This document shows positions 44,893 through 63,371 of a stretch of 64,000 nt of DNA, piece after piece. How positions within the stretch are numbered: the stretch's first letter is position 1; every line of letters begins with the position of its first letter. The notes beneath the pieces were generated by a model, which was not told the origin of the DNA, made no database searches, and saw only the letters and a list, made by a program, of their open reading frames with translations. The translations under genes and the position numbers were made by a program. Source of the stretch: a virus; the IMG/VR virus record IMGVR_UViG_3300043411_001575, positions 1 to 64,000 of that record. The stretch is one strand, 5' to 3'.

Positions 44893-44965
44893 TTGAGCGA
44901 CTAGGAATCGAACCTAGAGTCTCTTGAATCAAAATCAAGCGTGTTGCCTGTTACACTATCGCACA
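44893..44965 (-). tRNA. tRNA-Gln(TTG)
   Basis: Cloverleaf; anticodon arm CTTGA-TTTTGAT-TCAAG; T-loop TTCGATT. Confidence 0.9.
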
Positions 44966-45009
44966 ATAAATATTTTATTTTCAGAAAACAAATATACAAA
45001 AAAAATTAG

Positions 45010-45081
45010 TGTGAGTAACAGGAATTGAACCTGTGCGGACGGATTTTCAGTCCGTTGCTCTACCTGCTGAGCTATACCCAC
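45010..45081 (-). tRNA. tRNA-Phe(GAA)
   Basis: ACGGA-CTGAAAA-TCCGT; canonical D and T arms. Confidence 0.93.
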
Positions 45082-45120
45082 ATAAGGCTTTTCAGCCTAT
45101 TGTTTGTTGTTAAATTATTA

Positions 45121-45864
45121 TTACCAATTACCCTTACCTGAATGATAATCATTTAATCTGTTTTTTCTTTTTCCGTTACCTATATTCTTTCCGCAATAAG
45201 TAGGAGTCTGAGCATGGCAGTTAGGGCATATGTTTCTTATATTAGAAACTTTGTCATTTTCAGAATCTCCATCTATGTGGTCTAATTGTAATGGTATTTT
45301 ATTTCCCATCCAATCATGTAAACCGCAAACCATGCACTTGTGACCATTTTTATCAATTAGATATAATTTAAGTATTTTATTCTTACTCGTTCCTGATATG
45401 TTACTTTTAAATGTTCCATCTTCTATTTTTTTGAAATTATATAGTTTCCTGTGATAATAACTACATTCACGAGAGCAAAATTTAGCCACATGGTTTTTTA
45501 ATTTTTTTCCACATATTATACAATTTAATTTTTCCCTCCACATTGGATGACTATTTCCTGACATCAAATATTTATTATTACATTCTCTTGAACACGATTT
45601 AAAATCTTTGTTTTTAGAACCAATAGCCTTCTCGTACTCTTTTCCACAATGACATATACAAATTACTCTTTCATACTTTCTTTTATTAATATTTGAATTA
45701 AAATGCTCTATACTTAAATTAAATTTATCTAACAGTTTTTTAATTTTTTTCATGTTAGCTCCGTTAATACTTAATTTTAAAGCTCTACATAAATCACTTT
45801 TTGAATTTGAATTAATTAATATTTTTTCAAATTCTTCTTTTGTTATACTTTTAAAGTCTAGCAT
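45121..45864 (-). CDS. HNH homing-type endonuclease
   Basis: Zn-finger repeats plus CMVCG...LQLDHIDG...N...N...CPNCHAQT. Confidence 0.9.
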   Translation of the reverse strand: MLDFKSITKEEFEKILINSNSKSDLCRALKLSINGANMKKIKKLLDKFNLSIEHFNSNINKRKYERVICICHCGKEYEKAIGSKNKDFKSCSRECNNKYLMSGNSHPMWREKLNCIICGKKLKNHVAKFCSRECSYYHRKLYNFKKIEDGTFKSNISGTSKNKILKLYLIDKNGHKCMVCGLHDWMGNKIPLQLDHIDGDSENDKVSNIRNICPNCHAQTPTYCGKNIGNGKRKNRLNDYHSGKGNW

Positions 45865-45930
45865 TTGGATGTCGATTTAATGTAAAGTTACAAATAAAAT
45901 TAAATAAAACAAACGTCATCTTATACTAAG

Positions 45931-46002
45931 TCGAAAGTATCGGACTTGAACCGCTCCTGATTACCCCAAATAACCTATGCTACCAATTACAACATACTCT
46001 CG
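45931..46002 (-). tRNA. tRNA-Pro(TGG)
   Basis: GGTTA-TTTGGGG-TAATC; C1-G72, A73. Confidence 0.85.
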
Positions 46003-46018
46003 ATATTATTAAATAAAA

Positions 46019-46028
46019 TTAAAGAACG
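46019..46028 (-). promoter_or_regulatory. boxA-like antitermination motif
   Basis: CGTTCTTTAA directly after terminator 1. Confidence 0.6.
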
Positions 46029-46041
46029 AATTTTTGAACAT

Positions 46042-46070
46042 AAAAAAACCCTGATGATTAGTCAGGGTCT
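46042..46070 (-). terminator. attenuator terminator 1
   Basis: ACCCTGA-CTAATCA-TCAGGGT plus T tract. Confidence 0.85.
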
Positions 46071-46097
46071 CTTATTGTTTGTTTGTGATATATTTTT

Positions 46098-46190
46098 TCA
46101 CCCACACGGACAATACGCTCCTGACAACTGCAATCTAAACTGCGGTTGTTGAGGAAAAAATTGTTGAGTGTATGTGTTTGTTATTTTCAT
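46098..46190 (-). CDS. leader peptide of the Pro/Phe/Gln tRNA operon (MKITNTYTQQFFPQQPQFRLQLSGAYCPCG)
   Basis: Translated by hand; codons 9-18 are all Q/F/P; lies between promoter and terminator. Confidence 0.88.
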   Translation of the reverse strand: MKITNTYTQQFFPQQPQFRLQLSGAYCPCG

Positions 46191-46194
46191 GATG

Positions 46195-46226
46195 CAAAGT
46201 AACGAAATGTTTTTTAATCTACCAAA
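46195..46226 (-). promoter_or_regulatory. promoter of tRNA operon 1
   Basis: TTTG-N20-TTACTTTG, ending 4 nt before the leader ATG. Confidence 0.6.
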
Positions 46227-46270
46227 TTTATTTTGAATTATTTTTAAAAATATTTTATTAACTTCGTGAA

Positions 46271-46768
46271 ATGATAGTAATGAAAGGTGTTTGCGAAGTT
46301 TGTAATGATGGAAAAGAAAAGCAATTAGCTAAGAAAAGACCTCCTTTGTGTGGTTATCATTACTCAATTGAACAGCGAAAAAAATCTGCTGAGAAAAACA
46401 AAGACAAGCCAAAGAAAGTTCAAAAGCAATTAAAACGTACTCCATTGTCTTATAAAAGAAAAGCTACAGGAGAGCTTGAACTTATGAAGAGTATTTGGGA
46501 TAACATGGAAGAACATAAATCTTTCATTAGCGGAAATCCAATTTATGAATTCAATGTAAGTTGCATGGCACATGTATTAGCAAAAGCAAAAAATAAGTAT
46601 CCTAAATTTAAATTGAATCCTGATAATATAAAATTACTCACATACGAAGAACACTTCAAATGGGATAATGCTCCACGCTCTGAGTTAATAAAACTTCCTG
46701 AGTGGGACAAAATGTTTAAGTTAGAAGAAGAACTAAAACAAGAATATAAATTATTGTTTGGATTATAA
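46271..46768 (+). CDS. HNH/NinG-like nuclease-fold protein
   Basis: CEVC..CGYH finger; AHVLAK..YP...NPDNIKLLT.EEH..WD. Confidence 0.5.
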   Translation: MIVMKGVCEVCNDGKEKQLAKKRPPLCGYHYSIEQRKKSAEKNKDKPKKVQKQLKRTPLSYKRKATGELELMKSIWDNMEEHKSFISGNPIYEFNVSCMAHVLAKAKNKYPKFKLNPDNIKLLTYEEHFKWDNAPRSELIKLPEWDKMFKLEEELKQEYKLLFGL

Positions 46769-46769
46769 A

Positions 46770-47264
46770 TTAATGCTTATTGTTATGCTTTTCCCGATGA
46801 TGCTTTCTACACAACCAATTTACTGTTAAAGGCTCATTGTAATCTTCATGATGCGCAAATGTATTTATGCTATCACATCCTTCAGTCTCGCATATTCCAC
46901 GAATTAATTTACCTGTCTTAACTGCGTAATATACCTTTTTTCTTGCTCTTATCTTTTCAGGATACCTTTCGCATTGGATTTTTTTATAGTGGTAATTGTT
47001 ATTTGATATGCCATCCTTCCAATTAGGATTATTTTCACCATCAAATTTATATTTTTCATGTATTATTTTAGCACTTTTTTTACCGTTCTCTATTCTAAGC
47101 TTACTAATTTGTGCAGTTGTTCTTTTAATATTATTCCTCATCATTATCCTTTCAATACCCCAATGAGTCATATTGAATTTTTCAGCGAGTACTGAATTAG
47201 ATAAATGTAAATTATTTGAAATAAATTCAAGCATTTCATTTTTTTGTTCCTTTGTTTTTCTCAT
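46770..47264 (-). CDS. HNH-like endonuclease
   Basis: GENNPNWKDG, GICETEGC...AHHEDY..PL.V.WLCRKHH; start moved to ATG 47264 because the upstream part of the track ORF overlaps tRNA-Leu. Confidence 0.8.
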   Translation of the reverse strand: MRKTKEQKNEMLEFISNNLHLSNSVLAEKFNMTHWGIERIMMRNNIKRTTAQISKLRIENGKKSAKIIHEKYKFDGENNPNWKDGISNNNYHYKKIQCERYPEKIRARKKVYYAVKTGKLIRGICETEGCDSINTFAHHEDYNEPLTVNWLCRKHHREKHNNKH

Positions 47265-47306
47265 AATACAAATATACATAAATCTTAGTAGTTGTACAAT
47301 AAAAAG

Positions 47307-47387
47307 TATCCCTAGCAGAACTCGAATCTGCAAGTCAAAGACAATGGTTTTTAAGACCATCCTGTTTACCAATTTCAGCATAGGGAT
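47307..47387 (-). tRNA. tRNA-Leu(TAA)
   Basis: ATGGT-CTTAAAA-ACCAT; long variable arm. Confidence 0.9.
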
Positions 47388-47393
47388 ATTTTG

Positions 47394-47475
47394 TACAGAT
47401 AGAGGTATTCGAAACCTCATGCATTTCTGCGTATGATTCTAAATCATGTGCGTCTTCCAATTCCGCCATATCTGC
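47394..47475 (-). tRNA. tRNA-Leu(TAG)
   Basis: ATGA-TTTAGAA-TCAT; long variable arm. Confidence 0.88.
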
Positions 47476-47491
47476 ATTTGTTTTTTTATTG

Positions 47492-47564
47492 TTGGAACAC
47501 TAGGAGTCGAACCTAGATTAGCGGTTTTACAGACCGAATTCTTACCCTTAGAAATGATGCTCCA
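47492..47564 (-). tRNA. tRNA-Tyr(GTA), atypical short variable arm
   Basis: CGGT-CTGTAAA-ACCG; T arm CTAGG-TTCGACT-CCTAG. Confidence 0.75.
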
Positions 47565-47570
47565 ATTTTG

Positions 47571-47656
47571 CGGAAACAGCAGGACTTCAACCTGCACGGG
47601 CTTTTATACCCCTAGCGTTTTTCAAGAACGTGTACCTCTGTCAATTGGGTGCTTCC
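47571..47656 (-). tRNA. tRNA-Ser(TGA)
   Basis: CGTT-CTTGAAA-AACG; long variable arm; G73. Confidence 0.8.
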
Positions 47657-47685
47657 AAATTATTTTATTTCAATGAACTGTTTTG

Positions 47686-47769
47686 CGGAGAGCAGTGGTC
47701 GTGACCCACACTCGTTTAACCGAGCCGACAACTTAGCAGGTTGCGCCTACCCTGATAGGTTTACTCTCC
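47686..47769 (-). tRNA. tRNA-Ser(GCT)
   Basis: GCAAC-CTGCTAA-GTTGT; long variable arm; G73; non-canonical T-loop. Confidence 0.8.
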
Positions 47770-47773
47770 TTTT

Positions 47774-47847
47774 GGGTAATATATCGGGATTGAACCGATG
47801 ACCTCTCGAATCACAATCGAGCGTTCTACCACTGAACTAATATCACC
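47774..47847 (-). tRNA. tRNA-His(GTG)
   Basis: CTCGA-TTGTGAT-TCGAG; C73. Confidence 0.9.
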
Positions 47848-47857
47848 ATGTATCTTT

Positions 47858-47867
47858 TTAAAGAACG
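47858..47867 (-). promoter_or_regulatory. boxA-like antitermination motif
   Basis: CGTTCTTTAA directly after terminator 2. Confidence 0.6.
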
Positions 47868-47881
47868 AATTAATATAAAAC

Positions 47882-47911
47882 AAAAAACCCCAAACTTTTC
47901 AGTTCAGGGTT
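47882..47911 (-). terminator. attenuator terminator 2
   Basis: AACCCTGAACT-GAAA-AGTTTGGGGTT plus T tract. Confidence 0.85.
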
Positions 47912-47933
47912 CTTATCATGTAAACAAATATGT

Positions 47934-48011
47934 TTAACTACAATAGAGATTTTCCTGAACCGATTGCTTCGGATACAGCGACAAATAACTATGTAATGAT
48001 GTATTTTTCAT
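47934..48011 (-). CDS. leader peptide of the His/Ser/Ser/Tyr/Leu/Leu tRNA operon (MKNTSLHSYLSLYPKQSVQENLYCS)
   Basis: Translated by hand; codons 5-13 are all S/L/H/Y. Confidence 0.88.
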   Translation of the reverse strand: MKNTSLHSYLSLYPKQSVQENLYCS

Positions 48012-48019
48012 AATGGATG

Positions 48020-48050
48020 CAAATTAAAGGATTATTTATTTATCCGCAAA
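48020..48050 (-). promoter_or_regulatory. promoter of tRNA operon 2
   Basis: TTTG-N19-TTAATTTG, ending 8 nt before the leader ATG. Confidence 0.6.
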
Positions 48051-48641
48051 ATTTATTTTTAATAAAAATCATATTGAATTGAAAATGAGTGAAATAAAAT
48101 TATTCGATGCAAATTAATTCTACTTTTTTGACTTTATCCCAAATCTTACCGAATGCAGTAGGATTCAACCCAACTTTTGCAGTCCAATTTGTAGGGGCAA
48201 TCCATTTCTGTCCATCGTGTAAATTACCCACAGAAGCTACAGAAGTACCTCCTCCTGATTTTTTCTTCCAATAAATACGGTACAAACCACATCTTAATTC
48301 TTTAACGTCTTCTTTTTTCATCTTATTTTTTTTAATTTAAAATACGTCTAACTTCAGGAAAACATTTGTCTAATTTATTCTCCCATTCTACTGAGTAACG
48401 TGAATAATAGTCCATGTTTCTATTTACTCTTTCAATAGCCTGCTCTCTTGTGAAATTGTTACATATCATACAGAATTCAATGTGAGTTTCATGAGCATCT
48501 TTAGCTAATTTAAATTTGTCTTTCATTAAAACATCTTTGAAAAACCAATCCATAAACCAATCATATACGATTGGTAATTCTTTTGTTGGATTAGCATTCC
48601 ATTCTTTTAATTCCTTTAATGATTTTATTCTTTTTTTCATT

Positions 48642-49235
48642 TTATAATACATTTAATTCTGAATATTCTGTACCCCAATTTTCAATAGCAGCTTCATTAT
48701 ATGCTTTAGCAGCATCTTCTTCACTTAAAAAATAACCTAAATGCTTTTTCTTGTAGTCTAATTTTATTGACGCAGACCACTTGTTAGCGAACTTATTCCA
48801 ACTGACTCCTTTATAAATACTGCTTGGAACATTACCATTAGCGGTTCTTTGTTTTTTCTCTTTATAGTGAGCTTTTTGATGGCTTATTAATTCAAGATTA
48901 TCTCTTCTTAAATTTAATGGATTCCTGTCTTTATAATGAATTACCGTTTTACCTTCTGCTTCAAGTAATAATTTAGCAAAAGGAGCTACAATTCTTTTTC
49001 CTTCTTTTGAAATCCAAAGTGCCATTACTGCTTGTCTCTGTTCATCAAACCAAATATCTTGTTGCCTGAGAACTTCATAATCAAAATCATCAAACTGAAT
49101 ATTTTTTCCGCAAGTGGTTTTTACCCATCTGAATTGGTCTGCAAAAATACGCATTGCCTTTACCACATCTTCAGATGTAAAACTATTATTCTCTTTCCCA
49201 AATAAATCTTTTATAACCTGTATCTCTGTTTTCAT
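48642..49235 (-). CDS. HNH-AP2 domain protein
   Basis: Degenerate HNH (IHYKDRNPLNLRRDNL) plus AP2 (YKGVSW...KWSASI...HLGYF.SEEDAAKAYNEAA). Confidence 0.85.
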   Translation of the reverse strand: MKTEIQVIKDLFGKENNSFTSEDVVKAMRIFADQFRWVKTTCGKNIQFDDFDYEVLRQQDIWFDEQRQAVMALWISKEGKRIVAPFAKLLLEAEGKTVIHYKDRNPLNLRRDNLELISHQKAHYKEKKQRTANGNVPSSIYKGVSWNKFANKWSASIKLDYKKKHLGYFLSEEDAAKAYNEAAIENWGTEYSELNVL

Positions 49236-50141
49236 CTAGCATAAATATATTTACCGCCATCCCAAAATCTTTCTGATTTATTTTTAATACCTAACCACTC
49301 CCTAAATGAAAGACCACTATCATCACTAAGGAATTCACGGTATCTTATTTGTGAACGAGTTAGTTTTTTAATTGGTGGCTTATGATTAAATGTTTCCAAG
49401 TATTGTACTTCCCATGTTGGATGGCAAGGCAAAGGCTCTGCGGTTACATTATCATAAAAATTAACTCCGATATAGTTTCCCATATCTTTTGTTATTACCC
49501 CTTTTTTACCATTAACAATTACCTCTCTGTGTATTTCAGCAGGAACATTATATCTGTTTTTTATGTATTCGAATTCCACTTTTTATTTCGTTTTAAAATC
49601 TTCGTATTCTCCAATATAACAAACTCCATATTCAAGATAATCACCATCCTTAGTAAATTCTTTTTCCATAAATCTAGCTTCTTTATAGGCACTATCTTCT
49701 GTTTCAAATAACTTACTCTTACCAAAGTACTTTTTAAGTTCCTTTTTACGCTTTACACTTCCTTCAGGAAAGAAATAAATATTATCTATGCATTGCGTAT
49801 AAATAACTCTATATCCATCAGGAAACTTAGCTATGTATATCCCATTGTCTGCACTCATTAATTTGTATTTTTATAAAACCAATATAAATCTCCATCAGGC
49901 TCTAAAATCCATTCGCCTAAATAATCTTTTGCGTTATCACAGGTTAAGGTTATTTTACTCATACTATCAATCTTCAAAGTTTTAGTATCCATAATAGTAG
50001 CAGCTCTTATTGTTAACTGCCCATGAATTTCCTTTACAACCACATCAGTACTTCCGATGTGGCTCTTTAGGTCTTTTGGTACACAAATGATAACAGTATT
50101 GTGCCTGTATGTAGTATCTACAATTTTAACTTGAAACATAA

Positions 50142-51194
50142 TTACTCTTCGTTATTGTAAAACACTTTGTAAAACTTCATTCCTTTTTCTTCATCAAAAC
50201 CTTTTTGAACTAGGTCATGTCTTCCATGAATGTAAAGATGAAAGTTCTTGTCTAATTTGATGATTCCTTTAAAATATTTCTCTTGTTTCTTTACCGCTGT
50301 TGCTGAAATTTCGAAGTCTTCAACATCATTTTTTACGTGATTAACTTCTTCACTAATTGTTCGGTATTCTTTGAAGCTATCAATTAATTCAGGTTGAGAT
50401 AAAACTTCTGCTTGAAACTCTTCTATGTTAAATCTATCCTTATCTTTAAAGTAGTTTAGTGACCTGTCTTTAATCAACATTTGGTCAACAGGCTCAACAT
50501 TGTTTTCTTGTGTTAAAACCTCTTCACAGAAATTATTAATTGTAGCTAACATGTTGTTTGTATGAAAGAATCTATCTTCACAAAGTTTTACCCCTAAGAA
50601 ATCTTCTGTCCAATATAAAGCTGCCTGAGCTATTTTATGACTATTATCAATGATGCTGATTTTATAACCATCTTCATTGTTAACATTGAATATCAAACAT
50701 CCCTTGTCAAGTTTATTGATGTTTATTCCATTCTCTGCTTCTACCTCAAAATTATCAAGGTTTTGATTTAATTTTAAGTATGTTTCTTTATTCTCCGACT
50801 TGAAGATTCCAATAGCATCACAAAGTTCTCCATCTACAACACAATCTCTGATATATGTCATAAAGAAATCACCACCTTTAATTTTAGGATGATTACTTTG
50901 GTCATAAAGACGTTGAGCAATCTTCTTAGAGTTTTCAAACATAGTTGATGGGTTATCAAACACATCTCGTACATACGATTGAACATCATAAATTTTAATC
51001 GCATCAGGCTTTCTGAATTGGAAATACACATCAGATTTAAAGGTATTCAGGAAGAAATGGTAAATAGTTTCCTTAACCCATTCATCGCCTATTTTATTAG
51101 GCATGTTTGCGAAGACAATCTCTTCTCCTAATCCTTTGTTACCAACGTAGTGTATTGCGATTTCGTTGGATTCACTTCTTTTAAATTCAATCAT
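50142..51194 (-). CDS. nucleoid-associated protein (NA37/YejK-like, Bacteroidota type)
   Basis: IHYVGNK, LYDQSNHPKIKGG, AIGIFKSENKETYL, GININKLDKGCLIFN, YWTEDFL, IKLDKNFHLYIHG. Confidence 0.8.
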   Translation of the reverse strand: MIEFKRSESNEIAIHYVGNKGLGEEIVFANMPNKIGDEWVKETIYHFFLNTFKSDVYFQFRKPDAIKIYDVQSYVRDVFDNPSTMFENSKKIAQRLYDQSNHPKIKGGDFFMTYIRDCVVDGELCDAIGIFKSENKETYLKLNQNLDNFEVEAENGININKLDKGCLIFNVNNEDGYKISIIDNSHKIAQAALYWTEDFLGVKLCEDRFFHTNNMLATINNFCEEVLTQENNVEPVDQMLIKDRSLNYFKDKDRFNIEEFQAEVLSQPELIDSFKEYRTISEEVNHVKNDVEDFEISATAVKKQEKYFKGIIKLDKNFHLYIHGRHDLVQKGFDEEKGMKFYKVFYNNEE

Positions 51195-51214
51195 TTTTTT
51201 CTGTTTTTTAATTA

Positions 51215-54200
51215 TTATTTATCTTCTACTTTTTTAATTATTTCACACCATTCAGCTATGAAATCAGTTTCTTCACCTGATTCTAAGCGAACATAAACAC
51301 GATTATTATCCAAGAAGCCATACCCAATAATTTCTCCTTTAGATGAAGTTCCAAATGCTTTTTGCTCGACAATATCACCTACTCTTAAACCATAGTAGCG
51401 ACTTCTGTTTTCGTTATCAAATTCTTTTTGCATTTTAATCCTCCTCAGATAAAACAGGTTCTAACTCTAATTCAAGAAGAGTAGCTAGTTTTTGTTTTTC
51501 TTCTTCTGTTACTTCAATTAATTCTTCTTCATCCCATTTTTCACACAATGTTTTAGTTGGAAGAGAAGTTGGAGAAAAGAACTTATGCTCAATACCATTT
51601 TCATCAATTACAGTAATGATAGTTGTTCCACCATCTCTGTATCTAGTAAAGTTTTTAACTTCAAATTCTTTTACAACTTCATTTTCAATGACAAAAAATC
51701 TGTGGTTTTTATATTGGGAATTGTAAGCAGGTGAATCAACTAAAAAATATTTAGGGTTTTCATCTTTTGTCTTGAAACAATATTGAATTTTTCTAACATC
51801 TTCAGGTATTTTCAAAAACGTCATAGATAAAGCTTTTTCTATCTGTTCGAAATTTACAAAAGTTTCATTTGGGTATGGATGATTAAATGGATTACCCTTG
51901 TCGTAACTAGCAGCTTTTTTCATGAAATTAAATTCAGGTGTCCAATCCATCCTACCAATTAAAAGTATTAAATTATCACCATGTGAATAAACTGTAAATT
52001 GTGATTTATGCACATCATACCAAACGTTTTTACCATCTGCTTGTTTCATATCTCCACGACCTGAACCAAATCCACCACCAATCATTTCAACAAAATAATC
52101 TGTTTTAGGAAATCTAATGTAAACTTGATGGTCTCCACCTTCTAAACCGAATCTTAACAACTCAAAATATTCTTGTGCCGTTTCTCTGTTTTCATCTTCA
52201 ACATCTGTGAAGTAAATAGCAGTATTTTTTAAATCAGAACTTCTAAAAAGTTCCACATCTCTTCCTTTGAATTGTGATAAATCACCGAATTGTTTTTCCA
52301 TTTTGTTTTCTTTTAATTTAAATTTTTAAATATTTTCAAGTTTTTTCAACTCTTTCAATTTTTCATCTCGAAGCTTTCTTACTTCAGATAAAATTAATTC
52401 TTTTGTTTCTTCTAAAGAATATAATTCAGAATGCGCACCTATACCTCCTACAAACATGAATTTATGTTTATACCTATCTCTTATGAATCTAACTGAAAAC
52501 AAAATTGCATCATTAATAAAATGTTCAACTGAATAAAGAGAGTCAATATGTTTATCATAATCTGAATAGTGAACATCCTGATAAGTTGAACTTTCTTTCC
52601 AATAGTGTCCTACTCTAAATCCGATAGAGCGAATCCACCTGTCGAACTCATTGTATTTATCCAAGAAAGCTTGTCTTTCTTCTCTTTCTTTAATTGCTGA
52701 TGTTTTGTATTTTTTCTTTGCCATAATTATCCAATTTGATTTTTAATAATTTCTTGTTTTGTCATATACTCATCAAATGCATTCATGAAAGCTAATACAT
52801 CATCATCGTAATCTGAATCAGGGTCGTAATAATCAAAATCTAACTTATGTGATATTTCTTTTGAAAAAATCATATCATATTTATTCTTCCATGATAAATC
52901 AGATGCAGCAATTTTTTTAGCTCTTTCGTATATAGCAACTTTTTCACCATAAGTTAATTCAACTTCATTCATTGATTCTTTTGTAGACTCAATAACATCA
53001 TTAACTAAAGTTAATATTTCATCTGTGAACCATTCACTTTCGAAATCATAACCTAATTTCTTTTCTAATATTTTTTTTACTTTCTCATCCATGATTATTT
53101 ATTTTCAATTTTATACTCGGTTCTAATTTTTGATGGAGAATAACTAATAGCAGGTAAAGTTTTAATAAATTGATTTAACTCATCTAGTTTATCTTGTAGT
53201 TCTTTTGGTATATCTCCATCTTCAGGCAATTTATCCTCCCAAATACTACTATCAATATTATCCAAATAATTTGAATCGCAAATTACAAGCATAAGGTCTT
53301 TTGGGTCAACTTCTGAGTCTTCACAAAAATCATCAATCTCATCAATATTATAAAAATATTTACTATAGTTCTCAGAATAAACAGGCTGTTTACCATCCCA
53401 CTCTTGAAAAGTATAAGCTTTATATCTTTCTACAGCCGATTTACTTATACAAAAATCACATTTAGTCCAACCTTTAGTTACCTTGTTCCCACACTCACAT
53501 TTATTATGAGTAGAACCATCATGACGAGCAGTACGTTCATCAGAGCCATAAAATCTACCATTACGACTTACCCATCCTGTTACTGTCATTTTTTTTGCAG
53601 CAATTTCATCATCAGGGAATACTACTAATTCTTTTTCCTTTTCCATTCTTTTTTTTTTAATTAAGATTGCTCAGGCAAATTATTAAATTCTTCTTCTGTC
53701 ATCATTACGGGAGTAACAGTGTATTGTAAATCATCAATCTCATATTTACCATCATCTGTTTCAACATCGAAATCTGCTAAAATTATTTCTTCTGCTCTTG
53801 AAATATCTTTAATAGTTACTGATAAATCTCCGTTGCTTTCTACAAGCCAATATAATTTCTTTTCCATTTTTAGTTTTTATAGTTTATAATAATGAAAGTA
53901 TTTCATGATATTTGTTAGTTAATCTTACAAGTTCTTCAAAATCTTTTTTTGAAAAATCTTTAAATTCATCTATATTATCAATGTTATCAAGAATTAATTC
54001 CATTTGATTCAAGACTTTAAGAACATCCATTTTATGTATAATTCCTAATTGGATTTTTGCTTCTGAAGTTAGTTTACCCATTTTTATTTTTTTAGCTAAC
54101 TAAAATTGTTTCTTCAATATAAACAGATGGTCTTCCTCCTGACATCTCTTCATTGTATACCTGAGACTTCTTTTTATCTTCAGCTTTTTCTTTATCAGTA

Positions 54201-56266: not shown

Positions 56267-56277
56267 AATTGTTTTTA

Positions 56278-56349: not shown

Positions 56350-56423
56350 TGACTATACAAGGACTCCAACCTTGAATCTTCGAGTTCGTAGCCCGATATG
56401 TTATGCGATTACACTATATAGTC
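56350..56423 (-). tRNA. tRNA-Arg(ACG)
   Basis: TCGGG-CTACGAA-CTCGA; T-loop TTGGAGT. Confidence 0.85.
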
Positions 56424-57487
56424 ATTTGTTTTTTATATCTCCTTACCCAAGAAGTAGCTCCACTCTTAGTTAGTCCAAATAAATTCATTATTTTTTTAAC
56501 TATTTTTTTATCATTTATATTAATGTTGTTTTCAGTTAAAATTTGAATTCTATTCTTATTGAACTTAATTGATTCATCTTTCATATTGTCAAAGTATCCT
56601 GATTTAGAACCATATTTCCTAGCCCTTGACAATCCATTTCTATCAGTCTTTTTAAAACACTTTGATTCATAAAAGTCAGGCATAAATTTAGACATCCATC
56701 CTTTAACTTTTTGTGGTATTAAGTCTGTTATTTCACTAACTCTCTTTGCCCATCCAAACTTAGAAAAATCAATATCTGAATTACTTATTATTTCTATTCT
56801 TTTAGAATGTATATTTTTAAAATTAAACTCATTAATACAATCAGTATATTCTTTACGTGATTTACTTTTAAATACTTCTTTTTTCTGTTTAATATAAAAA
56901 GAATAGTCAATATTACCCATATAATATTCATTCTTTAATCCTGAAATTAAATCACTTACAAATGATTTTTTATATATATTTGAATAGTGTATATCAAATA
57001 ATTTCCATCCTAATTCCTCTATTTCTTCTTTTCTTTTTTGATAATATTCTTTTAGAGAACCATCTCTATTATAATGTTGATTTCCATTTACCTCTATACC
57101 TATTTTTTTATCAGGGAATGCAATATCAATACTAAAAAACCTATTATCTAATGGTTTATACTCTTCTACAAAACTAATATCATTTTCAATAAATAACTTT
57201 TTTAAAATTTCACATGGTACAGATTTTAATTTTTCACTTCGTTTCCAAACGCATTTTTCAGGATTTTCTCGTAGATATAAAGACATTTTCAAACTTAAAT
57301 GCTTTCTTAATTCATCACTATGTTTTATTTTATGTTTTATTTTTTTGATGAAACCTTCTCTTTCAGCTCTATTTAATACATTTTTACCAATACCAAATTT
57401 TTTTGTTATTTTAGTCCAAAGTAATCCATTCTCATGTTCTGATTTAATTAAATCCCAATCTATTTTTGTTAAATCTAATCTCTTCAT
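56414..57487 (-). CDS. DUF559/Vsr-like (PD-(D/E)XK-related) endonuclease
   Basis: FVEEY...FSIDIAFPDKKIGIEVNGNQHY...LGWKLFDIHY; stop lies inside the tRNA-Arg 5' end. Confidence 0.8.
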   Translation of the reverse strand: MKRLDLTKIDWDLIKSEHENGLLWTKITKKFGIGKNVLNRAEREGFIKKIKHKIKHSDELRKHLSLKMSLYLRENPEKCVWKRSEKLKSVPCEILKKLFIENDISFVEEYKPLDNRFFSIDIAFPDKKIGIEVNGNQHYNRDGSLKEYYQKRKEEIEELGWKLFDIHYSNIYKKSFVSDLISGLKNEYYMGNIDYSFYIKQKKEVFKSKSRKEYTDCINEFNFKNIHSKRIEIISNSDIDFSKFGWAKRVSEITDLIPQKVKGWMSKFMPDFYESKCFKKTDRNGLSRARKYGSKSGYFDNMKDESIKFNKNRIQILTENNININDKKIVKKIMNLFGLTKSGATSWVRRYKKQMTI

Positions 57488-57527
57488 AATATTTATTTTT
57501 ATACAAATATATGAATATTATTTTTAG

Positions 57528-57617
57528 AATCCCCGATAGGAGTCGAACCTACATTATTCTTTTAAAAAGAAAGCAAAATTAGAAGTTTTGTGCATTATCC
57601 ATTTATGCTACGGGGAC
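57528..57617 (-). tRNA. tRNA-Arg(TCT) with extended variable arm
   Basis: CAAAA-CTTCTAA-TTTTG; variable region of about 20 nt. Confidence 0.82.
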
Positions 57618-57691
57618 ATATATTTATCTACCTCTTCGCAATCTGCGAGAAGTAAAAAAAGTTTTTATGTGCCTTGTAGTTAACATTGAAT

Positions 57692-58093
57692 TTAATTTTT
57701 GATATGTTTATTAAAGGATAACATTAATCCATTTATATTTTCTTTTCCAACAGGATTAGCACTTTGAATATTATACAATGGTAATTTTAATTTATTATCC
57801 AAACAATATTCTACTAACCATTTAGCGCAATCATATCCTGTTTTTTCTTCTTTCTTTAATAATCTTGATTTTCTTTTACTCATTCCTTTTGCCCTAGCTT
57901 CTAAAGCAACTTCCATTCCTAAATCATGGTCAAAACAAATAGCTTCAGGTAATCCATTTTGGTTAATCCAATCAACAAATTCATTATAAGATTTAACCCA
58001 AATACAATCAAAAGGTTTTTCAATCGGACTATATGAAAGCCAATCTCCTTCAAAAGGATTTCTCAAATCATCTAACCATAAAAGTTTTTTCAT
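57692..58093 (-). CDS. cyclic-phosphate-processing receiver-like domain protein
   Basis: LWLDDLRNP...WVKSYNEF...ICFDHDLG...KTGYDCAKWL...IQSANPVG. Confidence 0.8.
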   Translation of the reverse strand: MKKLLWLDDLRNPFEGDWLSYSPIEKPFDCIWVKSYNEFVDWINQNGLPEAICFDHDLGMEVALEARAKGMSKRKSRLLKKEEKTGYDCAKWLVEYCLDNKLKLPLYNIQSANPVGKENINGLMLSFNKHIKN

Positions 58094-58107
58094 TTTAAAA
58101 ATATTTG

Positions 58108-58180
58108 TGGCTCAGGGGGAACTCGAATCCCCAACCCTCGCATTAAAAGTGCGATGCTCTACCGATTAAGCTACTGAACC
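58108..58180 (-). tRNA. tRNA-Lys(TTT)
   Basis: TCGCA-CTTTTAA-TGCGA. Confidence 0.93.
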
Positions 58181-58270
58181 ATATTAATAATTACTTACTC
58201 TTTCGCTTTCGCAAAAAAGAAGATAAAGATTTTATGTTTCTCGTAACTAACATTGTTTTATTTTTTTATG

Positions 58271-58342
58271 TACCCGTTGATAGAATCGAACTACCGACAT
58301 AATCCATGTAAGGGATTCGCTCTACCCCTGAGCTAAACGGGC
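58271..58342 (-). tRNA. tRNA-Val(TAC)
   Basis: AATCC-CTTACAT-GGATT. Confidence 0.92.
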
Positions 58343-58352
58343 ATTTATTTTG

Positions 58353-58426
58353 TGGAGCGTACAGGATTCAAACCTGTGTAATCTTTCGTGCAAGGAAAGT
58401 GCATAGTCGGACTCTGCCAACACCCC
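58353..58426 (-). tRNA. tRNA-Ala(TGC)
   Basis: CTTTC-CTTGCAC-GAAAG; G3.U70. Confidence 0.9.
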
Positions 58427-58432
58427 ATTTTG

Positions 58433-58505
58433 TGTTCCCTACTTGAATCGAACAAGTGACCTCTCGGTTATGAGCCGAATGCTTCTACCCCTGAGCTAAA
58501 GGAAC
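58433..58505 (-). tRNA. tRNA with CAT anticodon, probably Ile2 (lysidine)
   Basis: TTCGG-CTCATAA-CCGAG; body resembles Ile2; Ile2 versus Met assignment is inferred. Confidence 0.75.
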
Positions 58506-58514
58506 TAATTAATA

Positions 58515-58760
58515 TTATTCTCTCAATGCATCTCTTATAACTTTATTCTTCTGTGTACGTTTATATTTGTTATATCCGCTACATCCAAAACAATTACAAG
58601 GTCTGCTTGTTGTTTTCAAAAAAGTATAACCATTTCCTGTTAATGCTTTCTTAATTTCTTTTTCGTCATTCCAAGATGGATGAGCGAACCAATTTTTTAC
58701 TCTTCTTTTAAATTTTGTTTCTTGTTTATGCCTATTGTAGGCACGACTTAAATTTTTCAT
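58515..58760 (-). CDS. small basic protein with CxCxxC motif
   Basis: 81 aa, Arg/Lys-rich, RPCNCFGC. Confidence 0.6.
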   Translation of the reverse strand: MKNLSRAYNRHKQETKFKRRVKNWFAHPSWNDEKEIKKALTGNGYTFLKTTSRPCNCFGCSGYNKYKRTQKNKVIRDALRE

Positions 58761-58833
58761 AGCTTCAAGGTTATCACCACTAGCGTAGCTTGGCTAATGG
58801 CTTATAGTTTGAATCTATGTTCTTTTATTGTTT

Positions 58834-59355
58834 TCATTTTTTAGCCTCGATTGATTTTTTAATAATAAAACTTATAGTTCCTTTGCTTTTAATATTTAGT
58901 TTTTCAGCTATTTGCTTATACGAAAGTCCTTCAATATGTAATTTAATTATCTCTTCATGATTGTGCTTCTTTACAAATGAAGTAGCTCTTAAAGCCATTT
59001 TCATTCTAACATCAGAAGGTTTATCCATATTGTTTTCTGAAGCTGTTCCTATTAAAATATTGTCTTTTGAATTATCTTTTTTATTCCCATTTAAATGCCT
59101 AACATGTACACCTTTTTTAAATATTTCATCTCCATATTTTTGATAAGCTACAAGACGATGTACCGAAACTTGTTTTGAAACAGATTTACCATCTATCAAT
59201 ATTCTTCTTGAAATATAGTAATATTTAGTCGTTGTATTAGTGGATAAATTATGCTTTCTTTTTTTATAAAAAACATTCCCTTCTTCATCAACCTTATATC
59301 CTACTCTAACAGCCTCTAATAAAGCTAATGTAGATATTGATTCTTTTATTTTCAT
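58834..59355 (-). CDS. HNH endonuclease with C-terminal HTH
   Basis: VHRLVA...VRHLNGNKKDNSKDNI..GT.SEN..D. Confidence 0.9.
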   Translation of the reverse strand: MKIKESISTLALLEAVRVGYKVDEEGNVFYKKRKHNLSTNTTTKYYYISRRILIDGKSVSKQVSVHRLVAYQKYGDEIFKKGVHVRHLNGNKKDNSKDNILIGTASENNMDKPSDVRMKMALRATSFVKKHNHEEIIKLHIEGLSYKQIAEKLNIKSKGTISFIIKKSIEAKK

Positions 59356-59368
59356 TTTGTTATTTTTG

Positions 59369-59442
59369 AGATAATGACCTGAATCGAACAGGTATTTCAG
59401 GTTTTGCAGACCTGTGCCAAAGCCAATATTAGCTACATTATC
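59369..59442 (-). tRNA. tRNA-Cys(GCA)
   Basis: CAGGT-CTGCAAA-ACCTG; U73. Confidence 0.88.
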
Positions 59443-59451
59443 TTTTTATTG

Positions 59452-59524
59452 AGCGAGTAGAGTGAATCGAACACTCATTTCCTGATTGGAAGTCAGGAGT
59501 AATAACACATTATACTATACTCGC
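59452..59524 (-). tRNA. tRNA-Gly(TCC)
   Basis: CCTGA-CTTCCAA-TCAGG; U73. Confidence 0.92.
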
Positions 59525-59528
59525 ATTT

Positions 59529-59693
59529 TTGTTATTGGATTCCGTGAGGACAACGTGTACGCAGGTCGTTACCTTCATTATTCTGTCGTTCACAAATGAG
59601 AATCAAATGTATTTACGGATAATTCTGACTACAAAAATTAATTTGCACAGCTTATCAATGGTTGCGCTTACAGGAGCGGATTACCAATAACAA
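59529..59693 (-). ncRNA. candidate rod-shaped ncRNA (about 165 nt)
   Basis: Ends pair (TGTTATTGG..TCCG with CGGA..CCAATAACA) with nested helices; fills the gap between tRNA-Glu and tRNA-Gly. Confidence 0.55.
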
Positions 59694-59727
59694 TATTTTT
59701 ATTTTCAAAGAACTTAATTTTGTTAGT

Positions 59728-59800
59728 CACCCGTAGCGTGGTCGAAACGCTTTTTAATGGTTGAAAACCATTTGTCCTAACCTACCGTAGACGAACGGGC
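59728..59800 (-). tRNA. tRNA-Glu(TTC)
   Basis: AATGG-TTTTCAA-CCATT. Confidence 0.87.
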
Positions 59801-60691
59801 GTTTTTGAATACCTCAAATGCCTCGTCCGATTCTGTTTTTTCTAATTTTGTTTTCATAATGTTTTTATTTTTTTAATCCAATTATCAGTGGATGCTGTTT
59901 TAAATTTATTTTCAAATTCAACCTCTTTAATTTCTTTGTGAGGTTTTATTTCTGTGTACTTTAATTCTTCTTTTACTACTCTTCCTTTTCTCTTTTTAAC
60001 TAATGGTTTCTTTTCTTCGCTATGAATGTTTCCTTCGCATTTTTATTTTTTAGGAGATAGCCAAACTTTTAACCTATTTAAATACCAATCATCTGATTGT
60101 TTTAAGCTCCTATGAGATTCATGCCTATCAACGTCGTGCATCCATCTTTTAAAGATATTATACTTCGCTACTGGGAACTTTTTTTTAATTGAACTATCAA
60201 ATTCAATTTGAGCCATAATTCCTGTAAGTTTTAAATATTTTTTTCCGTAATCTAAATATTCTTCTTTTGTCATTTTTTTTGTTTTAAAATTGTTATTGCA
60301 AATATATGTAATTTAAACTAATCCGTACAAAATCCTGCTTGGCATCCGCTGCCTGTTCCAAAGTTAAAATCCTGTGCAACCCTATTTTTTTAAATTCAAA
60401 GTAACTACCTTCTTTTTTCCATTCACATTTTGTAGTGCCACATCTTTGCTTCTGACCTATTCTGCAAAATTCAATTTCATTTAACCCCATTGTATTTTTT
60501 TTATTTTAATACCACTGAGCAATGGAGAGCAATTCATTTCATTTATCTTCATTATTTGCAAATAACAAAGGACTACTTTACTCTGCTCTTTACCCACTAC
60601 TCAATATTTTAAGAGTACAATTCAAGCTAACTTCCTACACTGAACACCGCTTCAGCAAGGCTTTGAGCCTATTTTAAATTATACTCTTTTG

Positions 60692-60776
60692 CACAAGCGG
60701 TAGGAGTCGAACCTACACATCCCTTTCGGGCAACAGATTTGGAGTCTATCCATCTCTCCATTGTATTAGCACTTGC
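60692..60776 (-). tRNA. tRNA with CCA (Trp) anticodon and long variable arm
   Basis: ATAGA-CTCCAAA-TCTGT; variable arm CCC-GAAA-GGG; G73; weak D stem. Confidence 0.7.
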
Positions 60777-60786
60777 GTTTTTTTTG

Positions 60787-60861
60787 CAGTTATGATGGGA
60801 TTTGAACCCACGACCTCTACCGTGACAGGGTAGCATTCTAACCGAGCTGAACTACATAACT
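60787..60861 (-). tRNA. tRNA-Asp(GTC)
   Basis: CTACC-CTGTCAC-GGTAG. Confidence 0.93.
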
Positions 60862-60886
60862 ATTTTTTATTTTAAAGAACTATTTG

Positions 60887-60958
60887 CGTATAGAAAAGGG
60901 TTCGAACCTCTGTAACCTTCATTAACAGTGAAGTGCTTAGCCACTCAGCCATCTATAC
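60887..60958 (-). tRNA. tRNA-Asn(GTT)
   Basis: CTTCA-CTGTTAA-TGAAG. Confidence 0.88.
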
Positions 60959-60969
60959 TTTTTTTCAAT

Positions 60970-61044
60970 TGGTAGCGGAAGGGTGACTCTAACACCCGAC
61001 CTTTGGGATATGAACCCAACGAGCTAACCCTGCTCTATTCCGCA
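60970..61044 (-). tRNA. initiator tRNA-fMet(CAT)
   Basis: TTGGG-TTCATAT-CCCAA (three G-C pairs); 1-72 mismatch; encoded CCA. Confidence 0.85.
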
Positions 61045-61614
61045 CTGTTTCATTTCATAATGTAGTTCTCTATGACAATTAGAACAAACAATTATGCATT
61101 TATCAAGTTCTTTTTTTATCTTTTCCCAACACGTTGTAGAATATCTTGATATATTAAAATCTTTTTGTTTTGGTTCAATATGGTGGAAATCAAACGCCCA
61201 TATACATTTATCATATCCACATTTTTCACATTTACCACCTTTATATTTAACTGCTTTTTCTTTAATTTTTTGCCGTGCTGTTTTTACTCTCAAATAATTT
61301 CTTTTTTTTCTTTCTTGTGTACTTAAAATTACTTTTTTTACTATTAATTTTAAATATCTTTTTATTCCTGATACAGAAACATTAAATTTTTCTGCTGTTT
61401 GTTTTAATGTATGTGTTTTATAATACTCTTGAACTTTTAATATTTTTTCATCAGATAGTTTCCTTGTATCCATAAGACCTATATATGATAGATTATGGTT
61501 TTTGCAATGATAACTAATAGTAGATGAAGAGCATTTTAGCTTATTTTTTATTTTGCTATAACTCCACCCTTTCTCTCTTAAATTTAATATTTTATTCTTC
61601 AAACCTTTACCCAT
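61024..61614 (-). CDS. HNH endonuclease with N-terminal HTHs
   Basis: GGKCEKCGY...FDFHH...KC..VCSNCHRELH; start moved to ATG 61614; stop lies inside tRNA-fMet. Confidence 0.88.
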   Translation of the reverse strand: MGKGLKNKILNLREKGWSYSKIKNKLKCSSSTISYHCKNHNLSYIGLMDTRKLSDEKILKVQEYYKTHTLKQTAEKFNVSVSGIKRYLKLIVKKVILSTQERKKRNYLRVKTARQKIKEKAVKYKGGKCEKCGYDKCIWAFDFHHIEPKQKDFNISRYSTTCWEKIKKELDKCIIVCSNCHRELHYEMKQCGIEQG

Positions 61615-61661
61615 ATAAAAATTATTAATGATACAAATATAGTTAAAAGTTCGATAAATAG

Positions 61662-61735
61662 TACGCAAAGATGGATTTGAACCACCGACCACATGATTAT
61701 CAGTCATGTATTCTAACCAACTGAACTATTTGCGT
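61662..61735 (-). tRNA. tRNA-Ile(GAT)
   Basis: CATGA-CTGATAA-TCATG. Confidence 0.93.
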
Positions 61736-61746
61736 ATTTAATATTT

Positions 61747-62055
61747 AAAAATGAGAACGCATGTGTGCTTCTTTGCGTTTTTCTCCAACCGCACAGGAAG
61801 GATTTCCAAAAGTGTTTCTCCACTTCCAAAATAAAATCGTATAGCCTCCAATAAAGAAAAGGTTTTGCGCTTTTCGGTCTTGTACCGCCCTGAAACCTCT
61901 GCTCATCTAAGTTATAGACAATTTTAGTTTCATCCAAATTTGGAGCAGTCCTGTTTTTCAACTACATTCATTTATTTTTTTCATAGAGTTTCTATTTCAT
62001 CAGGTCAAGGCTCGAAGCCCCTTTTTCTCACTGACACTCACAGGTAACTCATTCT
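61747..62055 (-). ncRNA. candidate structured ncRNA (about 300 nt)
   Basis: GC-richer gap between tRNA-Met and tRNA-Ile; ends pair (AGAATGAG with CTCATTTT); several internal hairpins. Confidence 0.45.
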
Positions 62056-62109
62056 AATCAATTCAGAAAATTCTGAATGATATTTTAATATTTCAAAGAA
62101 CTAAAAACG

Positions 62110-62183
62110 TCCCGACAGCAAGATTTGAACTTGCGACACTTTGGATATGAACCAAATGCTCTACCGAACTGAGCTATGTCGGA
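62110..62183 (-). tRNA. tRNA-Met(CAT), elongator
   Basis: TTTGG-TTCATAT-CCAAA. Confidence 0.85.
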
Positions 62184-62246
62184 ATATAAGATTCCTTGCT
62201 GCAAGTCCCCGCACTATATCTGCTTTTATGGGGAGGAATCTTTTTG

Positions 62247-62318
62247 AGCCGTGAGAAGGAATCGAACCCTCGTGCGTAGATTACAAATCTACTGCTTTAC
62301 CAACTAAGCTATTACGGC
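62247..62318 (-). tRNA. tRNA-Thr(TGT)
   Basis: GTAGA-TTTGTAA-TCTAC. Confidence 0.92.
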
Positions 62319-63025
62319 TAAAATGACTTACCATCTCTTGCTCTTTGTCTCCTACTATGCCTTCCATTACCTTTATTTAAAGCTTTATAATTCAGTGTTA
62401 GTGAATGGCAATTTGGACAAATTAACTCGACATTATCAGAATTATTATTTTTAGAATTTCCATCTTTATGATTTAGTTCAATTGGAACTTTTTTTGTTGT
62501 TTCATTTATTTCGTTCCAACCACACTTCATACACTTTTCACCATACATCAATATCAATGTTCTCTTTAATACAAAATCACTTAATCCGTCCGTATCATTA
62601 TTATTTATCCTTTCAATTAATTTTTTATTTCTGTAATCAGAGCAGCAAACAATAGAACAATATTTTGTAAAATTAGTTTTACACTCACTCTCACAATTCA
62701 CGCATTTTGGCTTCTCTTTTTTTTTCTTTCTAATTCTAAATTTATTAGAAAATGAAGCTGAACATGAATTATTACAAAATTTAGTTCTTACAACACGTTT
62801 GCCATTAATAAAATCAATATTACTAATAGAATTTCCACAATTTAGACACTCAATAATTTTCCTTTTCAAGTTTTCAGAGTAGTATCCTTCTCTATTCAAA
62901 TGATTTTTTATCAATCCCCATGTAAGATTTAATTCTTCCGATATTTGCATATACGTAAATCCTTCTTTAATCATTTTTTTAGCAAAATTTGATTGCTCAA
63001 TTGTTATTTTTCTATTAACACCCAT
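62318..63025 (-). CDS. HNH homing-type endonuclease
   Basis: CMKCGW...IELNHKDG...NN...N..LICPNCHSLT; paralog of 45121-45864. Confidence 0.9.
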   Translation of the reverse strand: MGVNRKITIEQSNFAKKMIKEGFTYMQISEELNLTWGLIKNHLNREGYYSENLKRKIIECLNCGNSISNIDFINGKRVVRTKFCNNSCSASFSNKFRIRKKKKEKPKCVNCESECKTNFTKYCSIVCCSDYRNKKLIERINNNDTDGLSDFVLKRTLILMYGEKCMKCGWNEINETTKKVPIELNHKDGNSKNNNSDNVELICPNCHSLTLNYKALNKGNGRHSRRQRARDGKSF

Positions 63026-63116
63026 TTGTTTTTAATAATTAGTTGAAATACAAATTTAACAAAAAAAATAAACAAAGTCAATAATTCAAATAAAACTATT
63101 GGCTCAATACATATTT

Positions 63117-63126
63117 TCAAAGAACG
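63117..63126 (-). promoter_or_regulatory. boxA-like antitermination motif
   Basis: CGTTCTTTGA directly after terminator 3. Confidence 0.6.
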
Positions 63127-63132
63127 TAAAAC

Positions 63133-63162
63133 AAAAAGCCCCAACTTTTTAGGTTGAGGCTT
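63133..63162 (-). terminator. attenuator terminator 3
   Basis: AAGCCTCAAC-CTAAAAA-GTTGGGGCTT plus TTTGTTTT. Confidence 0.85.
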
Positions 63163-63186
63163 CTGTGTTTGTATTTTTATGTTTTA

Positions 63187-63297
63187 TTACACTCCCATTG
63201 TCGTAATTAAACAATACACAGATGCCCCTTGAGTACACGCCTTATCGCCCGTATTCTCTGACCACATATTTTCCACTATAATATTTCTGCGTTTCAT
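63187..63297 (-). CDS. leader peptide of the 16-tRNA operon (MKRRNIIVENMWSENTGDKACTQGASVYCLITTMGV)
   Basis: Translated by hand; the first 21 codons include all 13 amino acids served by the downstream tRNAs. Confidence 0.88.
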   Translation of the reverse strand: MKRRNIIVENMWSENTGDKACTQGASVYCLITTMGV

Positions 63298-63338
63298 TAT
63301 TTTTATTATTTATTACCACACCATGTAGTAATGAGCTG

Positions 63339-63371
63339 CAAATATACAACTATTGTTTTTTTAAATGCAAA
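63339..63371 (-). promoter_or_regulatory. promoter of tRNA operon 3
   Basis: TTTG-N21-TATATTTG on the minus strand. Confidence 0.7.

Follow-up and report, generated by a model that had tools for sequence, protein, structure and literature searches.

In the window analyzed here, the first 64 kb (positions 1 to 64,000) of the IMG/VR virus record IMGVR_UViG_3300043411_001575, three transfer RNA (tRNA) operons on the minus strand each lie behind a short open reading frame (ORF) whose codons are those of the tRNAs that follow, and behind an intrinsic terminator whose 5′ arm can pair with the distal part of that ORF. We judge it likely, with a probability of roughly 0.8, that each of these units acts on its tRNA operon as a trp/his/thr/ilv-type transcription attenuator operated by the ribosome. 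The phage would then probably make a tRNA set only when ribosomes decode the codons of that set slowly. An initial annotation of the window had proposed this trp/his/ilv-type logic, and the proposal is supported by sensing codons that lie upstream of the antiterminator strand, by a default fold that contains the terminator, and by leaders that co-vary with tRNA genes.

Architecture of the leader units

The complete virus record comprises 169,658 bp at ~29% GC. ARAGORN recovers 24 tRNA genes in the window, all on the minus strand between positions 44892 and 62318, and together these cover all 20 amino acids. They fall into three blocks among which the amino acids are split 3 + 4 + 13, with zero overlap. 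The initial annotation had described this split, and it stands; its picture of three operons needs amendment, as the blocks are interrupted by ORFs resembling HNH/HTH endonucleases and operon 2 holds an extra Ser(UGA)-like tRNA.

Ahead of each block the same parts recur in the same order on the minus strand, as had also been described: a promoter motif, an ATG-initiated ORF of 25–36 codons, an intrinsic terminator, the motif CGTTCTTTRA, and then the tRNAs. The promoter motif is of the Bacteroidota type (TTTG, ~20 nt, T(A/T)N(1–2)TTTG) and lies at 46195–46226 in unit 1, at 48020–48050 in unit 2 and at 63339–63371 in unit 3, where it reads TTTG, spacer, TATATTTG. This motif class is 2.7-fold enriched genome-wide relative to shuffled sequence; a scan for sigma-70 promoters was uninformative, finding 100 where 103 were expected. 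The leader ORFs span 46098–46190 (30 codons), 47934–48011 (25 codons) and 63187–63297 (36 codons). Terminators follow at 46036–46073 (12-bp stem, 7-nt loop), 47875–47914 (14-bp stem, GAAA loop) and 63127–63164 (12-bp stem, 7-nt loop); their hairpins are worth −13.7, −16.2 and −15.0 kcal/mol, each is followed by a T-run, and those of units 3 and 2 are top-ranked on the minus strand in a terminator scan. Within the ~40-nt 5′ untranslated region (UTR) of leader 3 there is, in addition, a three-codon mini-ORF (Met-Val-Trp-stop, 63313–63324, minus strand), and both of its sense codons after Met belong to the operon 3 set.

Leader codons and the tRNAs they precede

Codons 9–18 of leader 1, ten in a row, specify only Gln, Phe and Pro. 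Codons 5–13 of leader 2, nine in a row, specify only Ser, Leu, His and Tyr, and 20 of codons 2–22 of leader 3 fall within the 13 amino acids of operon 3, all 13 of which are represented. A 3 × 3 table of leaders against tRNA sets is diagonal. As a comparison set we used all 727 ATG ORFs of 20–45 codons on both strands of the whole genome. The longest Gln/Phe/Pro run is that of leader 1, with a runner-up of 5, and the longest Ser/Leu/His/Tyr run is that of leader 2, with a runner-up of 7; all 13 amino acids of the third set occur in just 4 of the 727. The earlier claim that the leaders carry the codons of the tRNAs they precede, in sets of Q/F/P, S/L/H/Y and the 13 others, is thus borne out, the runs of 10 and 9 being unique among these small ORFs.

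The correspondence extends to individual anticodons. Every codon of the runs in leaders 1 and 2 is cognate to some downstream anticodon. The nine codons of the leader 2 run are each cognate to one of six operon 2 tRNAs, and all six are sampled; the run takes in the two Ser boxes (TCA/TCG and AGT) as well as the two Leu boxes (TTA/TTG and CTG). Leader 3 contains CGC and AGA, one for each Arg tRNA of operon 3. The sixth operon 2 tRNA was itself predicted because leader 2 has TCA/TCG codons: the sequence at 47572–47656 (minus strand) folds as a class-II cloverleaf with the anticodon UGA (Ser), a 4-bp anticodon stem and an unusual T-loop, and it was missed by both ARAGORN and Rfam. The sequence CGTTCTTGAA at 47630, considered as a fourth copy of the boxA-like motif discussed below, was rejected, as it is the anticodon arm of this tRNA.

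Co-variation of leaders and tRNA genes in other phages

Whether homologous leaders track the identity of the tRNAs downstream had been named beforehand as a check, and it was run on IMG/VR with a pattern that held no leader or tRNA information (GGGTTTTTT, a gap of 3–20 nt, GTTCTTTRA). A tRNA gene follows on the same strand within 300 nt, mostly at 5–35 nt, at 75 of 120 loci among the matches listed; in bacterial genomes the same pattern is followed by a tRNA at 1 of 120 loci, again among the matches listed. Upstream of the viral matches there is almost always an ATG ORF of ~20–45 codons that stops 41–69 nt before the T-run, and four viral loci were inspected by eye. With at least 75 viral loci, the class is common.

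Across 51 non-redundant leaders, residues matching the tRNA set downstream make up a share of 0.473, compared with 0.332 after the sets are shuffled among leaders (z 10.9). Homologous leaders do track downstream tRNA identity when each family contributes a single leader (35 families, z 9.5), and in both tests the observed value was reached by none of 20,000 shuffles. The match is specific to the reading frame of the ORF, at 0.35 compared with 0.176 and 0.175 in the other frames (p ~1e-7). Where codon families are split, the box used in the leader agrees with the downstream anticodon at 24:9 for Arg and 28:12 for Leu. Single genes leave a trace as well: in one leader family, the sensing run includes an Ala codon in both contigs that encode tRNA-Ala, and four contigs that have the array without this gene have Ser or Thr there. 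A contig with two leaders (L098 and L112) matches each to its own array. A further locus, L014, was found independently through a search with a cREC_REC protein, and it lacks the exact T-run context of the searched pattern. It has a promoter, a 32-codon ORF, a terminator and GGTTCTTTGA, then 13 tRNAs, and 18 codons in a row of its leader specify the seven amino acids that those tRNAs carry and no others.

These observations bear on a rival interpretation, in which the terminators are constitutive, or act as insulators, before boxA-led tRNA units, and the small ORFs are untranslated chance frames. Small ORFs are certainly frequent at 29% GC, as the size of the comparison set illustrates, and the units are known here from sequence only. 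But chance frames would not be expected to yield cognate runs found nowhere else in the genome, nor the co-variation across 35 families, a match confined to one frame, a stop codon fixed at 41–69 nt before the T-run, and an ORF end complementary to the terminator arm. A constitutive terminator placed directly between a promoter and its sole genes would, moreover, be senseless, and we regard this interpretation as very unlikely. It is more improbable still that the small ORFs encode functional micro-proteins, with the codon match as a by-product. Many of the predicted peptides open with Met-Lys and end in a tail that is hydrophobic or contains Cys, as such a role might lead one to expect; between families, however, they are unconserved save for the parts that track tRNA content and the RNA pairing strand.

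What seems to be a "pangram" form of this device is present in two unrelated IMG/VR contigs. At L016:7520–7735 and L068:4710–5050, an ORF of 44–45 codons with all 20 amino acids is followed by a terminator, and it directly precedes an array of 20–23 tRNAs without the GTTCTTTRA motif. Suppressor-type tRNAs also occur within attenuator-led arrays, with anticodon UUA in L120 and CUA in L030.

The breadth of some leaders raises the question of what is sensed. The mechanism could be the same and the signal be general amino-acid starvation, or overall translation speed, instead of particular tRNAs, in which case any slowing of translation would turn the tRNA operons on. Classical leader-peptide attenuators respond to aminoacyl-tRNA and do not distinguish a low level of tRNA from low charging; leader 3, which samples 13 amino acids, and the two pangram leaders resemble general translation probes. 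Against such a signal, the three leaders of the window divide up the amino acids in just the way that the tRNA genes divide them, every isoacceptor box of Ser, Leu and Arg is represented among the sensing codons, leaders change with the gain or loss of single tRNA genes, and extra tRNA would not relieve a shortage of amino acids. We consider a general signal unlikely, and prefer attenuators that report on the particular tRNAs they control.

Other routes to relatives were less productive. The leader regions found no relative among GenBank phages by blastn, just pieces of tRNA or HNH sequence; of two flanking proteins used as search anchors, one of 73 aa gave one locus and one of 104 aa gave none; and the closest relatives of the window's cREC_REC protein have no tRNAs nearby. 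Of three named phages examined, Prevotella phage Lak-A1 has a tRNA region without a terminator–boxA unit, and in the cultured Tenacibaculum phages pT24 and PTm1 the pattern matches lie in coding DNA without tRNAs; no cultured model system was found among those examined.

A predicted terminator–antiterminator switch

In the default minimum free energy (MFE) fold without a ribosome, the terminator is present in each leader transcript. Constrained folds were computed with a ribosome footprint masked on the sensing codons and the transcript extending up to the terminator loop. Under this constraint, the distal ORF pairs with the terminator 5′ arm and the bases preceding it in all three units, at −18 to −32 kcal/mol, in keeping with the pairing that the initial annotation had pointed out; in units 2 and 3 the antiterminator is the MFE structure even at full length.

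The predicted 5′ strand of the antiterminator lies at 46109–46125 in unit 1, where GUCAGG…UAUUGU pairs with ACAAUA…CCUGAC at the terminator 5′ arm (folds of −19 to −24 kcal/mol). In unit 2 it lies at 47939–47962 and also pairs with the terminator 5′ arm, and in unit 3, at 63215–63229, it pairs just before and within that arm at −20.1 kcal/mol. The hexamer TATTGT, previously noted in all three leaders, is indeed found in each of them and falls inside the predicted antiterminator strand in every case; membership in this strand would explain why the leaders share it. Compared with 1000 dinucleotide shuffles, the antiterminator duplex of unit 3 has a z of −4.9, with none of the shuffles as good, and that of unit 2 a z of −2.1, with 34 as good. 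In the viral set, pairing between the distal ORF and the terminator 5′ arm has a mean z of −2.4, with two thirds of values below −2 (p 1e-14), and its end mostly falls in the final ORF codons.

The geometry of units 1 and 2 fits a ribosome-operated switch: the antiterminator strand begins 11–12 nt past the last sensing codon, at the front edge of a stalled ribosome, and the stop codon is near enough for a terminating ribosome to cover the strand.

The boxA-like motif

Between terminator and tRNAs, each unit carries a motif that we take to resemble boxA, of which the Escherichia coli rrn version is GCTCTTTAACAA. It reads CGTTCTTTAA in unit 1 (46019–46028, 16 nt before tRNA-Pro) and again in unit 2 (47858–47867, 11 nt before tRNA-His), and CGTTCTTTGA in unit 3 (63117–63126), where TATTGAG comes next, a continuation shared with an rRNA leader of Flavobacterium. 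Across the complete genome, the minus strand has exact CGTTCTTTRA at the three unit sites only; further boxA-like copies were found by motif scan between the tRNAs of operon 3 (62093–62101, 60872–60880 and 59705–59713, minus strand).

For comparison we used the 16S leaders of four Bacteroidota genomes, taken as representatives of the presumed host group. After a TAnnTTTG promoter and a short hairpin, these leaders carry AGTTCTTTG, AGTTCTTCAACAA, GATCTTTGAAAG, AAGTTCTTAAAAG and ACGTTCTAAAAATTATTGAG, that is, motifs of the type (A/C)GTTCTT(T) or G(A/G)TCTTTGAAA, and the leader bearing ACGTTCTAAAAATTATTGAG also has TATTGAG next, as in unit 3 of the window. Because Bacteroidota rRNA leaders carry such motifs, and because copies recur between the tRNAs, CGTTCTTTRA is read here as a host-type boxA. 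No literature report was found that links the motif sequence with boxA, the matches being unrelated primer lists. The sequence TATTGA(G/A) stands shortly after a boxA-like motif in the window (63100–63126, minus strand), in L083 and in the Flavobacterium 16S leader L312, and it may be a second conserved element of antitermination.

Proposed mechanism and points against it

If each unit is an attenuator, transcription would start at the Bacteroidota-type promoter as a short mRNA whose small ORF is translated immediately, and in mid-ORF the ribosome would meet a run of codons whose cognate tRNAs are encoded downstream. With quick decoding, it would move on over the distal ORF, leaving the terminator 5′ arm unpaired with the distal part; the terminator would then form and halt transcription. 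In unit 3, it is the proximal leader that would instead re-pair with the distal part, to the same effect. When cognate charged tRNA is scarce, the ribosome would stall on the run, the distal strand with its TATTGT would pair with the terminator 5′ arm, and the polymerase would read through. Past the terminator, the host-rRNA-like boxA would probably load NusB/NusE, and the untranslated tRNA array with its inserted endonuclease genes could be transcribed without Rho termination. The new tRNAs would quicken translation of the leader and turn the operon off. The net effect would be negative feedback on tRNA supply, specific to each operon and resolved to isoacceptors.

Several points weigh against this account. 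Regulation is deduced from sequence only; what is directly established is how the units are built, which alternative folds they allow, and how leaders co-vary with tRNA genes from phage to phage. Four runs labelled RNA-Seq consist of contigs, two of them probably derived from DNA, and bear on neither transcript ends nor expression. The ATG of unit 1 sits 4 nt past the −7 box, so its mRNA would be leaderless or nearly so, and leader 1 would require leaderless-type initiation. The antiterminator duplex of the same unit is weak when taken alone, with a z of −1.1 that is not significant (142 of 1000 shuffles as good). In unit 3, the stop codon lies 26 nt beyond the antiterminator strand and a ribosome at the stop leaves the strand uncovered; termination there would thus have to rely on early leader sequence re-pairing with the antiterminator strand. 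The codon match of leader 3 is modest by itself, since its set spans 13 of the 20 amino acids and four of the small ORFs hold them all. Across the IMG/VR set, the box agreement seen for Arg and Leu is absent for Ser (22:23), a signal that may be blurred by tRNAs that ARAGORN missed. Three promoter-like motifs lie inside operon 3, among many inserted ORFs; its distal tRNAs may therefore escape attenuator 3, and not all 16 tRNAs need depend on it. Finally, the boxA-like motif is a candidate NusB/NusE site, and the Nus step of the account is a prediction.

Relation to known systems

Leader-peptide attenuation is familiar from enterobacterial amino-acid operons: thrL senses Thr and Ile, the ilvGMEDA leader senses Ile, Val and Leu, and trpL, hisL and pheL are further examples. 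The phage units resemble these in having a short translated ORF with clustered regulatory codons, in sampling several amino acids per leader, and in a terminator opposed to a mutually exclusive antiterminator, the choice being set by ribosome position. They differ in that they would regulate tRNAs and not enzymes, and in their codon composition: a phage leader may sample as many as 13 amino acids, most of them with just one or two codons, whereas enterobacterial leaders have long runs of one to three. They are, moreover, phage-borne, with a boxA after the terminator, Bacteroidota promoters, and little or no 5′ UTR. They share no sequence homology with the enterobacterial leaders: no Rfam family reaches threshold on them, Thr_leader remaining below it at 30 bits against a cut-off of 55. 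Another comparable system is the pheST attenuator of E. coli (pheM leader), which controls phenylalanyl-tRNA synthetase. There, too, a component of the translation apparatus feeds back on the decoding of the sensed codons; pheST, however, is a host system whose target is a protein (the synthetase) and in which just one amino acid is sensed.

T-box riboswitches likewise use a terminator and an antiterminator to report the state of specific tRNAs. They bind uncharged tRNA directly and with no translation, using a specifier codon together with the conserved T-box sequence, whereas the codons of the phage leaders are read in frame. One might nonetheless ask whether uncharged tRNAs could pair with the codon run directly, independently of any ribosome, and so stabilize the antiterminator; the regulated genes and the presumed ligand would both be tRNAs, as in T-box systems. 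We think this highly improbable. At E values up to 1, neither the T-box family (Rfam RF00230) nor any other riboswitch family is matched in 44000–64000; the codons are phased with the ATG and with an in-frame stop set at a constant distance, and the match is lost in other frames; and up to 13–20 specificities in one short leader are incompatible with a single specifier loop.

The proposed hand-over after the terminator recalls boxA and NusB–NusE in rrn operons: in both, a motif of the (C/A)GTTCTTT(A/G)A type opens a long stable-RNA operon that is not translated, and further copies lie within that operon. In the phage, the motif follows a probably regulated terminator and not a promoter, serves tRNA arrays, and is a putative Nus site.

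Full-text literature searches turned up no description of tRNA genes under leader-peptide attenuation, either in phages or in other systems. The mechanism proposed is that of a classical attenuator; what is new is the stable-RNA target, the breadth of codons, the phage setting and the boxA hand-over. In the textbook description, tRNA genes are controlled at the promoter only, by growth rate and the stringent response. Here, a device of amino-acid operons would be applied to tRNAs, such that the decoding rate of a test message sets the transcription of its decoders. This would explain how large phages dose their tRNA sets, and it would tie phage tRNA arrays to host Nus antitermination. For contigs of uncultured phages, it would also supply a rule by which to predict operon boundaries and the identities of tRNAs, including tRNAs that gene finders miss, such as Ser(UGA). 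For synthetic biology, the leaders may offer compact natural sensors for the availability of chosen tRNAs.

tRNA arrays and neighboring genes

Operon 1 (44892–46002) contains tRNA-Pro, a 247-aa ORF with weak HNH similarity (45121–45864), tRNA-Phe and tRNA-Gln. Operon 2 (47306–47846) contains tRNA-His, Ser(GCU), the Ser(UGA)-like tRNA, Tyr, Leu(UAG) and Leu(UAA). The 16 tRNAs of operon 3 (56349–62318), as called by ARAGORN, are ordered Thr, Met, Ile, Met, Asn, Asp, Trp, Glu, Gly, Cys, Met, Ala, Val, Lys, Arg and Arg, with HNH/HTH ORFs and a cREC_REC gene among them. Another promoter-like motif, at 56325, follows the last tRNA, and the next gene block is therefore probably a separate transcription unit. 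All three operons, and the ORFs described next, are on the minus strand.

ORFs resembling HNH/HTH homing endonucleases lie through and beside the arrays, at 45121–45864, 46770–47264, 48642–49235, 58834–59355, 61024–61707 and 62318–63025. The last of these, a 235-aa ORF between attenuator 3 and tRNA-Thr, has a Cys/His-rich C-terminal part and no Pfam match, and is probably a mobile endonuclease insertion. Contigs of a relative ~90–95% identical to the phage (runs X18 and X19) skip several of the endonuclease-like ORFs, including this one, and the ORFs between tRNAs therefore fit mobile insertions into arrays that were once compact.

Two further genes suggest, in combination, a capacity for tRNA repair: an RtcB-type RNA ligase on the plus strand (24932–26362; PHROG tRNA-splicing ligase, E 1e-90) and, inside the tRNA array, a cREC_REC cyclic-phosphate receiver-domain protein (57692–58093, minus strand). 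On the basis of these two genes, one may speculate that the attenuators are the sensing arm of a counter-defence against a host anticodon nuclease or tRNA-depleting toxin, which would switch on only the matching operon while RtcB and the receiver-domain protein carry out repair and boxA takes over transcription. We hold this purpose to be possible and rather doubtful. If true, stable-RNA genes would here be governed by translation-coupled attenuation for the first time, and the attenuators would be natural sensors of tRNA integrity with isoacceptor resolution.

Just upstream of the tRNA region, 716 nt past the end of the window, lies a gene for transfer-messenger RNA (tmRNA; 64716–65002, minus strand) whose tag ends in KLAA; the phage thus carries a ribosome-rescue RNA alongside its full tRNA set. 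A structural protein is nearest to those of Prevotella and Tenacibaculum phages, which is consistent with a host among the Bacteroidota. In several studies, metagenomes of freshwater and wastewater repeatedly contain DNA of this phage.

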